Positions 20,612-62,810 of a stretch of DNA of 64,000 nt are shown piece after piece. Both the position numbers and the translations under genes were made by a program. The stretch comes from Octopus vulgaris (Eukaryota): assembly GCA_951406725.2 (NCBI GenBank), contig OX597821.1, forward strand, positions 2,294,001 through 2,358,000. The letters run 5' to 3'. Under the pieces are notes generated by a model. That model worked only from the letters and a program-made list of their open reading frames with translations, was not told where the DNA came from and searched no databases. Position 1 is the stretch's first letter, and each line of letters begins with the position of its first letter.

Positions 20612-20910
20612 TATCTGTAAATTAATATGTGACAATTATTCAATAGCCAAGATAAAACTCTGAGTTTCGGATGCCGAGGTGGAAATCCAAACCACCATCT
20701 CTTCGGTTATCTGGCCATCTTTGTCCGCTTCGAAATCTTCCAAGATAATCGAAGAGATGGTGGTGTGGATTTCCACCTCGGATATCCAAAACTCAGAGTT
20801 TTATCTTGGCTGTTGAATAATTGTCACATATTAATTTACAGATAAATTTCCTCTATTTACATAATATTGCGGTCACTTTCTTTCTTTTGTTATTTTACCG
20901 TTTTTAATAA
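20612..20910. mobile_element. Fold-back element with HHR-like motif in both arms
   Basis: Inverted arms 20612-20714 and 20740-20844, a tail to about 20910, and (TA)n on both sides. Confidence 0.8.
20647..20714 (-). ncRNA. Type I HHR variant (CCGAAGA core)
   Basis: Minus strand: agataa-CCGAAGA-gatggtgg...ccac..catcc-GAA-ACTCAGAGT-T-ttatct. The plus-strand twin at 20740-20809 has a 9-bp stem I (ccaagataa/ttatcttgg) but a mutated core (TCGAAGA, AAAA). Confidence 0.65.
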
Positions 20911-20999
20911 TATATATATATATATATATATATATATATATATATATATATATTAACACACACACACACACACACACAGATATGTGTATATATTTATGT

Positions 21000-21286
21000 C
21001 TCAGTGGTTAGGGCGTCGGACTCATAATCATGAGGTTGTGAGTTCGATTCCCGAACCGCGCTGTGTATTGTGATTTCAAGTTGCTCTAGATCACGTCGCT
21101 GATGCCAATCTGTATCAGCCTTTGCCTATCCTTGGCTAACATCGGTAGCATGGAGAGAGGTGGCTGGAATACATGGATGACTGCTGGTCTTCCATAAACA
21201 ATATTGCCCGTACTTGTGTCTAGGTGGGGAATTTCTAGGTAGAATAGCAAGGTCATTCATGACCGAAGGGTGTCCTTATCCTTTTA
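21000..21286 (+). mobile_element. tRNA-Met-like SINE with RTE-type tail
   Basis: A box ctcagtggttag, anticodon loop ctCATaa, B box gttcgattcc, tail ggtcattcatgaccgaaggg. A further partial copy lies at 22901-23003. Confidence 0.75.
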
Positions 21287-59183: not shown

Positions 59184-62100
59184 AAACGATTTCTGTTCAA
59201 TCTGCGTTCAGCTCCATTTCTTCAATTCACCAATAATGTTATATATATATATATATATATATATATAACCTACGATATACTTACATATACGAAAGTATAC
59301 ATATATATATATGCACGTATGCACGCAACCAGTTTAAACTGCCCGTCTTCAAAATCCTCGTGCGATATGGTCCGAGATCTGGAATTATCCAGAACATTTT
59401 TGCAACTTTATTTTGACTTTTTGTCTTCTCTCCTGGTGCTGTATGAATATTTAATGTGGTTTTAGAGTGAAGTATTGACTGCTATTATATACTCTTAGAT
59501 ACCCAAAATTATAATTAGATATATATATATATATATATATATGTATGTATATATATACATATGTATGTATGTATGTATGTATGTTTGAGTTTGCGTAGGC
59601 GTATGTATACATAAAGTTAGAGAGCAAGGTAGCTAAGTCGGTAGATAGATGCATAAATCATTCGAAATAAGTCGTTGAGAACCGAAACGAATGTGAAGCC
59701 ATGCAATAATCTGCGACACCGAAGTATTGCATTAGTGGAATTTCAAAAAAAGGACAATATCTTCACATATCCACATTTCCACACGCTTCATTAGAACTAG
59801 CGGTTCACAATTTCCATCTAATTGCTTTCTCTTCTACTTCACGACATTTGCTCATTGCAAGCAAGAAGAACAACAGCAATAAGAACGGCAGGTAGTACAG
59901 ACAAAACAGGAAATAAAAATAAAAATAAACGTTAAAGAAAAAATATAATACGTAAATAACATACGAGCCGAAAGTAAAATAGTACCTGGAGAGAAGAGAG
60001 AGAACACTAGGAATGTCTGAATTATATGCAGTATATGCATATGTGTGTATATGTCAATACACACACACATATATATATATATATATATATATATATATAT
60101 ATATATATATATATATGTATGTATGTATACATTTATATATTCATTATATATATGAATATATATGTGTGCGTATATATATATACATAAATATTATCTATAC
60201 ATATACACAGACAAACATATATATGTACGTATTTATGTGCCCCCGCGTGCACCCGCAACCACACACGCACGCAAAACACATTTTCCAACATATATGTTCT
60301 TATTCACACAGACATATATTGTATATGTATGTGTGTATATATATATATATATATATATATATATATATATATATATATATATATATATATATATATATAT
60401 ATATATATATATGTATGTATGTGTGTGTGTATGTGAGTAAACGAAATGTATAAAGGACGGAAATATAATAGTCAGGGAAATAAACGAGAAAAGGATAATG
60501 GAAATAGGAAAAGAAAAGCTATATATATTTATGCAAATACATATATACATATACATAGATACATACAAAGATATATACATACGTACATACATACATACAT
60601 ACATACATACATATATATATATATATATATATATGTATATATATATATATATATATATATATATATATATATATATATATATATATATATATATATATTT
60701 AAGTACATTCATGTAGATGCATATGCGGAAGAATGAAAATATAGAGAAGAAAAAGATTTGGCATTCAATGGAATGGTTCGGATGTACGCTGATTACCGTT
60801 GACATCAACAACCGACATTTCCAATTCTACTATTAGTGTTCTGATTTCAAAGAACATTGTCCTTTCTGAGAAATTCCATGACATTAACAGATAGCAATGC
60901 GTTCTGACAAAGATTTAAGATATAACCTCTATCGACGTCAGCAAAAAAAAGGAAATAAGATTTTAAAAAAATCAAAAAAATCTGAAGCCACCAATGCAGG
61001 AAAAGAAAACGAAAAAAAAAAGTGTAAGAAAAATAACTAAAAATGGGGAATATAAAAATTAAAGGTGGAAGCGTTCGTGGAAAGAATAAAGAGAAAAAGG
61101 AAGACGAAATAATGACAATACTCCATGTGAAAGAGTCTGTCTTTTTTTTATCACTATCCTATTCTCCCTTCTCTCTCTTTCTCTCTCTCTCTCCTCTCAC
61201 TCCTTCTCTGATTCACTATCTCTGTGTATGAACGAATATTCAAGCGTATATATATACGTATGTATATATATATATATATATATATATATATATATACACA
61301 TGTATATACATATAAATATGTGTATATATGTACATGTATACACACACACACATACACACATACACACACACACACACACACACCCATATATATATATATA
61401 TATATATATATATATATATATATATATATATATATATATATATATATATAGATATAGATATATATATTTGTACGCGAAACAGTTAAAAGTTAAGTAAGAA
61501 AAACGTCTGTATGTAGATTTATGTATATTATATATATATGGGGTGGGTGTATATATATTCACAGGCTTTTGTTTTCACTTAACTTTTACATGTCTCACTA
61601 TTCTGACGTTGGTCATGCTCGTGCACAACCTTGACTGTTTTAGTCGAAGAAAGCAACAACAATATATAATCTTATTGAAAGTTTCCGTTTGCTGAAGCGT
61701 TAAGTTGCGAGCACCAAAACACAGTAAAGGGATCTAGCACTCACACACACAAACACATACGCAAATATATTCATACAATGAGTTGCTACACTTGTTTTAG
61801 TCTACCATATCTGCTGACGAGTCTATATGGGATCGACATGTATATCTTGTATATGATACTGGATAATCGAAAACTATATAGAATTCAATTCATTCTTTTT
61901 ATCTGAAATACTGTTAGAGAGCCATGAATACCCTTAGTTATGTTGATTCTACATTCAGTTTACATGAATTACACTTGTGTCTGACGTATTCTCAGCTACA
62001 TCCAGAATGTTATGTCTTTTATGGAATAAGTGAATACACATCGTTAAACGACGGAGGTCCACACATGTCGTTCGATTCTAACAGACTACACTTGTGAATA

Positions 62101-62399
62101 TATATATGTACAACGGCAAGAAAGTGAAATTAGAAAAAAAGGCATAATATAATAATTGAGCAACAATCGTAGAATTTCATAATGCATACTCGACAGATGG
62201 AACGAAAAGAAACGGTAAATGACTTGGAAACCATGTCTCTCTCTCTCCACCCTCTCCCCCTCTCTCTATGTATATATATATATAAATAGAGAGAGAGAGA
62301 GAAAGTAAGAGAGAGGGATACATATATGTGCGTATATATGTATACAGACAGGCAGACACACACTCAGATATATATATATATATATATATATATATATAT

Positions 62400-62810
62400 A
62401 TAGTTATCGCCATACTAATATGGCATTCTTATAAAAATAAGAATAAAGCTGACCGCTTATTAGCTCCATGAAGCCATCGCCTTAAGTTAGCTATTTGATA
62501 CACAAACTGTATCCATATAACCTTCGAACAAGGGAGGTCAGTCGCTCCACACTACTTGACCGACAGCTACAGACGTCTGTAGCTGTCGGTCAAGTAGTGT
62601 GGAGCGACTGACCTCCCTTGTTCGAAGGTTATATGGATACAGTTTGTGTATCAAATAGCTAACTTAAGGCGATGGCTTCATGGAGCTAATAAGCGGTCAG
62701 CTTTATTCTTATTTTTATAAGAATGCCATATTAGTATGGCGATAACTATTATTTTCCGGGAACGCTGCCGTGTTCTCTTTTAGAGAGACTTAGTAATTTT
62801 AATATTTCTA
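62400..62810. mobile_element. Perfect 350-bp palindrome plus tail of about 60 bp between TA tracts
   Basis: 62400-62574 is the reverse complement of 62575-62749 with no spacer (centre cagac|gtctg). Confidence 0.9.

Follow-up and report, generated by a model that had tools for sequence, protein, structure and literature searches.

Six insertions in a 64,000-nucleotide stretch of the Octopus vulgaris genome (GenBank assembly GCA_951406725.2, contig OX597821.1, positions 2,294,001 to 2,358,000 of the forward strand; hereafter the window, with coordinates counted from its first letter) each consist of two inverted arms between (TA)n-type tracts, and in each of them one arm carries an outer 3′ segment that the other lacks. 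These insertions, designated A to F (Table 1), very probably behave like the ends of Penelope-like elements (PLEs); as an instance of published PLE architecture they are mostly an ordinary, known structure. On balance, they were probably formed by double-ended priming of a PLE-type insertion in (TA)n.

Inverted insertions between TA tracts

The window has a GC content of 34.6% and reads as non-coding animal DNA, with repeats that seem octopus-like; microsatellites are dense, with 157 rows in Tandem Repeats Finder (TRF) and 138 TA tracts of at least five units. Self-BLAST of the window after masking of simple repeats returned 11 inverted matches of at least 40 bits spaced by at most 2.2 kb, and A to F are ranks 1 to 6 among them. 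Comparable inverted matches were absent from all block-wise shuffles of the window (0 matches in 15/15), which rejects a chance origin of the inverted repeats; as a caveat, this null leaves dispersed repeat families unmodelled. All six are real structures of a recurrent kind, and the six TA-flanked inverted-arm insertions of a preliminary description of this DNA were recovered with two exceptions in the flanks: to the right of C, (TACA)n comes first and is then followed by (TA)n, and to the right of F only ~8 bp of TA precede the next element. The ubiquity of TA tracts makes TA flanks alone weak evidence. Inverted matches without a two-sided TA-flanked layout (30710-30775, 46921-46968, 12089-12176, 34030/35430 and 4194/5443) were excluded from the count; the first two are small degenerate palindromes (82-83%) without TA flanks, and 12089-12176 is a (TA)14 tract with 29-bp inverted arms directly on either side, the reverse of the A to F layout.

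One arm is longer in 6/6 insertions; it continues at its outer 3′ end where the other arm enters a simple-repeat tract, and symmetric insertions were not found among the six. The additional segment of 61-153 bp agrees with the 60-150 bp previously noticed. The centre of B is AT-only and near-palindromic, and that of D contains a TA tract, E and AT-rich filler. All three mismatches between the arms of E fall within ~15 nt (58043-58058), in helices II and III of the hammerhead, where each of them weakens pairing in the left copy.

Table 1. Insertions A to F with their arms and tails, and non-inverted relatives in the window. Arm identities were computed without gaps from the masked self-BLAST.
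Feature	Position	Strand	Observations
A	20615..20909		arms 20615-20712/20743-20841, 93/98 identical; extra outer segment ~65-68 bp
A short arm	20615..20712	-	hammerhead core 20706, predicted cut after 20656, 41 nt to TA tract
A long arm	20743..20909	+	decayed hammerhead 20749, predicted cut after 20800, tail ~20842-20909
B	32231..32513		arms 32329-32412/32425-32509, 80/84 identical; extra outer segment ~88-94 bp
B long arm	32231..32412	- (assumed; no hammerhead seen)	tail ~32231-32324
B short arm	32425..32513	+	terminal 6 nt TATATA common to TA tract
C	43483..43839		arms 43601-43656/43782-43836, 51/55 identical; extra outer segment ~115-118 bp
C long arm	43483..43656	-	5′ end within hammerhead helix III, 7 nt above predicted cut; tail ~43483-43597; alternative boundary up to 43663 if a 16-nt deletion is allowed
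C short-3′ arm	43657..43839	+	entire hammerhead (core 43725, predicted cut after 43788) and ~60 nt upstream
D	57468..59518		arms 57552-57702/59376-59516, 129/140 identical plus 12 gap columns; extra outer segment 84 bp
D long arm	57468..57776	-	hammerhead core 57745, predicted cut after 57699, tail 57468-57551
D short arm	59376..59518	+	homology starts at GATC (59376-59379), the four letters just above predicted cut
E	57814..59239		arms 57967-58504/58702-59239, 535/538 identical; extra outer segment 153 bp
E long arm	57814..58504	-	nested in central TA tract of D; hammerhead core 58106, predicted cut after 58033; tail 57814-57966
E spacer	58505..58701	.	197 bp; A/T-run microhomology at junction
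E short arm	58702..59239	+	hammerhead core 59100, predicted cut after 59173, 66 nt to TA tract
F	62403..62810		arms 62403-62574/62575-62746, 172/172 identical, zero spacer; extra outer segment 61-64 bp
F palindrome	62403..62749	.	perfect; centre ACGT 62573-62576
F tail	62750..62810	+	family 3′ end, from drop in contig depth
E relative	5688..5981	+	non-inverted, with hammerhead; long end 216 nt after predicted cut (E 219), in TA tract
Second E relative	19925..20209	-	non-inverted, with hammerhead; long end 209 nt after predicted cut, then TA
A relative	54655..54762	-	non-inverted; clear homology from the predicted cut site of A to the long end of A, then TA

Sequencing or assembly fold-back artefacts would produce perfect palindromes such as F, and no read or contig was seen across any centre; raw Illumina runs yielded 2 (X11), 22 (X12) and 0 (X13) reads on 62545-63070 from 12.9 million records each, none of them on F. 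These runs carry the same species label and may represent another genome, and they are no test of a junction or of an empty allele. An artefact is nevertheless extremely improbable, since the arms differ by 0.6-8% in 5/6 insertions, the flanks are not mirrored, and each of the short arms runs out into a simple-repeat tract of its own. Two independent insertions of the same family, in opposite orientation and in neighbouring TA tracts, would suit the density of TA tracts and nested insertions in the window, and would also suit D, where a TA tract and filler lie between arms with 92% identity and 12 gap columns; as a general explanation they are very doubtful, given that the centres of A, B, C, E and F are without a TA tract and that the arms of these five are 93-100% alike, compared to ~70-85% similarity with other copies in the window.

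Hammerhead motifs on the arms

A type I hammerhead descriptor found 7 motifs in the window. A looser descriptor, tuned after the motifs of C, D and the right arm of A had been noticed by eye, gave 9 matches, compared to a mean of 0.32 and a maximum of 2 over 50 shuffles; it failed on the left arm of E, which the first descriptor had picked up. The motifs are located on both arms of A and E, on the right arm of C and the left arm of D, and in single copies at 5692, 20205, 34288 and 62932; they have a palindromic helix III and, in most cases, a long helix II. A TA tract follows within 232 nt downstream of 9/9 motifs of the looser descriptor, compared to 35% of random positions.

By descriptor, A, C, D and E thus have, close to the 3′ end, a type I hammerhead whose helix III is palindromic; the 3′ half of an F hammerhead is known from one contig only, and in B descriptor searches and inspection found no motif. 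Wherever a hammerhead gives orientation, both 3′ ends point outward, as had been proposed: A and E carry motifs on both arms, C and D have the full motif on one arm and its 3′ remnant on the other, and F is oriented by the one contig. Among the single copies, 34253-34402 (+) is a 150-bp TA-flanked element that consists nearly entirely of a long-helix-II hammerhead (fold z -2.9) and ends 37 nt past the cut; 62818-63064 (+), TA-flanked and non-inverted, contains a minimal hammerhead (core 62932). In X2, the contigs of an independent sample from another study, the summed depth of this latter element exceeds 1 million, and in a common variant the core at 62933 is canonical again; among X12 reads, tandem-like back-joints occur in one of its relatives.

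The conserved long end and the short end

The predicted cut of E is followed by 219 nt on the long arm and 66 nt on the short arm, and the two E relatives (~70% alike to E) end close to the longer distance. In 3/3 non-inverted relatives the long end is the terminus, and sequence comparison therefore marks it as the conserved 3′ terminus. For F, the X2 contigs (4773 pieces mapped on 62545-63070) provide a sharp family 3′ end, with summed depth falling from 42458 (62797-62814) to 254 (62815-62832); both families in 62545-63070 are multi-copy in these contigs. Within the F tail, four sites in 16 bp (62758-62773) depart from the X2 family majority, with which the F arms agree; this is probably a subfamily variant. 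Pattern scans of metagenome contigs and genome contigs found 0 loci of family copies. No family has two short ends within the window. Short ends share at least 3 nt with the TA tract in 3/6 cases (A 3, B 6, F 3), compared to 3-12% of long-arm positions.

Long palindromes are unstable, and this instability, together with the TA microhomology at 3/6 short ends, could point to insertions that were symmetric at first and then lost one tail through a deletion from an internal TA-like site to the flanking (TA)n. Such later deletion is quite improbable: E and F, the two youngest insertions, are already asymmetric, a symmetric form occurs in 0/6, and a one-sided tail is a standing PLE feature in the cited part of PMC8557442. 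The short, non-coding, inverted and TA-flanked insertions also recall miniature inverted-repeat transposable elements (MITEs) or foldback DNA transposons with TA target duplications; an origin of this kind is highly improbable, as the inverted repeats reach only one terminus (both termini in 0/6), hammerhead motifs lie on the arms, and the relatives are single 5′-truncated arms with a fixed 3′ end, and it is contradicted for A, C, D and E. Even when added together, artefact, paired insertion, later deletion and MITE remain unlikely.

Junctions between arms and a proposed mechanism of formation

The arms of F meet in ACGT without a spacer. One X2 contig departs from the F arm at this ACGT with CGTTTCGGGGTAT, and its sense strand reads GAAA-CG-TC before the arm. 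By their letters, these positions would represent the 3′ half of a minimal hammerhead, the core not being seen in this single contig, and the central palindrome of F would correspond to hammerhead helix III; no pairing with the arm would be expected of the native letters above ACGT. As F keeps bases from above the cut, its template would have been uncleaved or re-ligated. In C, the tail-less arm alone has the hammerhead core and ~60 nt upstream, and the opposite arm alone has the tail; with sequence on each arm that is absent from the other, copying of either arm from its partner would have required an additional deletion. The arms of A join just above helix I; those of E do so 470 nt above the ribozyme, in an A/T run.

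Double-ended priming is favoured, since it accounts for C and F with no additional events and builds on activities demonstrated for PAc, the Poseidon enzyme of Anolis: the purified protein cleaves and extends both strands in vitro, prefers AT-rich DNA, starts reverse transcription (RT) at two sites bracketing the tail, uses uncleaved RNA and is predicted to be a dimer (PMC11167929). In the octopus insertions, a PLE endonuclease (EN) would cut both strands in (TA)n; from each of the two ends, cDNA synthesis on the element RNA would be primed, with a distal start for one end and a proximal start for the other. The tail would be the stretch between the two RT starts, and the short end would mark the proximal one; the two truncated cDNAs would anneal to each other and join via 3-6 matching bases. 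The ACGT centre of F, without a spacer, is a sequence through which two cDNA ends can pair. The enzyme, presumably of PLE type, would act in trans on this set of families. If both starts were used on one RNA molecule, assuming that this RNA was undegraded during copying, the 6/6 pairing of long and short arms would follow; had the arms chosen independently, this pairing would have a probability of at most 1.6% (3% without D). PLEs are not known to have RNase H.

In L1 twin priming, both target ends prime cDNA, and the pieces are joined at microhomology without overlapping, whereas in A to F the same stretch is present twice; twin priming, named in the preliminary description, would in this classical sense not give duplicated arms. 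A further source of inverted arms would be fold-back, in which the 3′ end of a cDNA started from the long end turns back and self-primes, and DNA-templated synthesis then halts, or the endonuclease cuts, at an AT-rich site before the tail. Fold-back would yield obligatory long/short pairing and arms that are identical at birth (E 535/538, F 172/172), it agrees with the spacer-side hammerhead of D on the tailed arm, and its components, self-priming and EN-mediated resolution, have been proposed for PLEs (PMC3846280, PMC8557442). Yet C, whose core is confined to the tail-less arm, would require an extra deletion, and F has no loop and its native letters would not pair. Of the two routes originally offered, priming at the symmetric TA target is retained, and fold-back, with its poor fit to the arms of C and the spacerless F, is possible but unlikely.

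A junction or 5′ end lies at most 7 nt from the predicted cut in both arms of F (ACGT), the short arm of D (GATC), the long arm of C and the single A relative. It is conceivable, albeit rather improbable, that the hammerhead organises the inversion, with palindromic helix III, by which PLE ribozymes dimerise, stalling both cDNAs and supplying self-complementary joining ends, and a dimeric RT-endonuclease using the distal and the proximal start in an obligatory pair. A, E, the short-3′ arm of C, the long arm of D and the single copies at 34253 and 62818 speak against it by extending well above the cut. If true, the ribozyme would have a role in integration that needs no self-cleavage.

Several observations count against PLE-type ends formed by double-ended priming. 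Rfam at gathering threshold gave 0 matches in the window, only 2/7 motifs fold better than shuffles at z < -2.5 in single-strand folding, and the minimum-energy folds are mostly without the three-helix hammerhead shape; such weak free folding would fit decayed, dimer-dependent ribozymes without proving them. Pfam searches of 127 frames (125 of the 179 low-repeat frames of at least 55 aa, plus 2 others) found no RT or GIY-YIG domain in or beside A to F; this absence is expected of 5′-truncated or non-autonomous copies, and in consequence PLE membership rests on non-coding features. The tails of 61-153 bp exceed the 30-40 bp published for endonuclease-bearing (EN+) PLEs (PMC8557442). Among the nine X2 loose ends listed (a further 182 lay outside the listing), there was neither a pile-up of ends at the F short end (62749) nor a strand-changing joint, and summed X2 depth over the F tail is not below that over the F arm, depth being no copy number. 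The orientation of B is assumed only, and D could be two insertion events. Finally, double-ended priming alone does not force long/short pairing; RT starts of PAc are equal between strands and not homologous to the target (PMC11167929), and this behaviour alone leaves the obligatory pairing and the TA microhomology unexplained.

With six of these insertions, from six dissimilar families, within 64 kb, this genome offers a large natural sample of PLE integration products. A genome-wide count of short ends, spacers and junction positions could discriminate double priming from fold-back and probe a role of the ribozyme. If transcribed, the long hairpins (E with a stem of ~540 bp) would be double-stranded RNA substrates for ADAR or small-RNA pathways.

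Coding content and neighbouring features

E contains ~670 nt above the ribozyme with no frame longer than 94 aa; A to F are non-coding ends that were either moved by an enzyme supplied in trans or derived by truncation from elements whose 3′ regions are long. Elsewhere in the window, the Pfam search matched only 27649-28514 (+), a broken fragment resembling the RT of a long interspersed element (Pfam RVT_1, 4e-12) with a PHD-type finger, located right after a TA tract and unrelated to A to F. Frames at 4310-5142, 13049-14115 and 25148-25753 resemble decayed Tc1/mariner-type transposases by eye, with no Pfam match at E 0.01. Two ~240-bp direct repeats, 817 bp apart and ~90% alike, occupy 33071-34127, the first at a TA tract; they look like a partial tandem of direct pseudo-long terminal repeats (pLTRs), show no clear hammerhead, and have relatives at 35354-35511 (opposite strand) and 50508-50705. 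A high-copy family (~9 copies) resembling short interspersed elements (SINEs) is found at 500-832, 3633-3983, 8240-8600, 45091-45458, 49479-49872, 53631-53969, 56400-56846 and other positions; a second SINE-like family with tandem units is found at 51522-52184 and 37815-38161.

Comparison with known elements

The following comparisons refer to the cited parts of each source. In PLEs, an inverted 5′-truncated copy frequently lies next to the 5′ end, the tail is often one-sided, and (TA)n is a preferred target (PMC8557442). A to F resemble the EN+ PLEs (Penelope/Poseidon, Neptune, Nematis, Hydra, Naiad; PMC8557442, Fig. 2) in the inverted 5′-truncated copy joined at the 5′ end, the one-sided tail (6/6), the microsatellite or (TA)n target and the absence of a readable target duplication. 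The inverted copy, one-sided tail, (TA)n and hammerheads match published anatomy (PMC8557442, PMC3846280, PMC4209133) and uphold the link to PLEs that was drawn in the preliminary description. Unlike EN+ PLEs, A to F are without an open reading frame (ORF), and they carry hammerheads, which Naiads do not (PMC8557442); the combination of hammerhead and TA bias would fit Neptune or Hydra. The origin of inverted ends and tails in PLEs is named as open (PMC8557442, section 15). A stereotyped integration route common to dissimilar families, as suggested for this window, stands as an observation, but it is not new, having been described in PMC8557442 and PMC3846280.

In Penelope elements of Adineta vaga, the tail occurs on one of two inverted pLTRs arranged head-to-head with junction palindromes, and self-priming was proposed (PMC3846280). 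A to F share with Pen2, Pen2a and Pen3a the head-to-head inverted pLTRs of which one is tailed, the junction palindromes and short overlaps; these Adineta elements differ in having ORFs and target duplications of 8-10 bp, and the cited passages do not place their junction palindrome at a ribozyme helix (PMC3846280). Anolis Poseidon PAc resembles A to F in the hammerhead upstream of two tail-bracketing 3′ ends and in the AT-rich target; in contrast to A to F, its tail is short and lies inside the ORF start, RT starts without target homology, and inverted products are not described in the cited part of the source (PMC11167929).

PLE hammerheads have a palindromic helix III and a mostly long helix II, and opposite-strand pairs are found 100-700 bp apart in Schistosoma (PMC4209133); A to F resemble PLE minimal hammerheads in the type I motif, the palindromic helix III, and the occurrence of dispersed singles and opposite-strand pairs (PMC4209133). 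Hammerhead repeats have also been tied to PLE ends (bioRxiv 10.64898/2026.07.22.740005); with the non-LTR retrozymes A to F share the character of non-autonomous pLTR-like sequence. Retrozymes form head-to-tail tandem arrays, whereas A to F and their relatives are head-to-head pairs or single copies; assignment to them was rejected, with no tandem array over A to F among the 150 of 157 TRF rows listed and no close direct repeat in the self-BLAST.

In the literature searched, with subscription papers outside its scope, no report of PLE twin priming or ribozyme-centred junctions was found. Junction positions or longer tails may already be contained in the supplements of PMC11167929 and PMC8557442, and the novel points are leads from few cases. 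A to F and their relatives have in common a 3′ end that is fixed, 5′ truncation of varying extent and (TA)n as target; what seems new in them is small, namely the longer tails, the 6/6 pairing of long and short arms, and the junctions at the palindrome of the ribozyme cut site in C, D and F.

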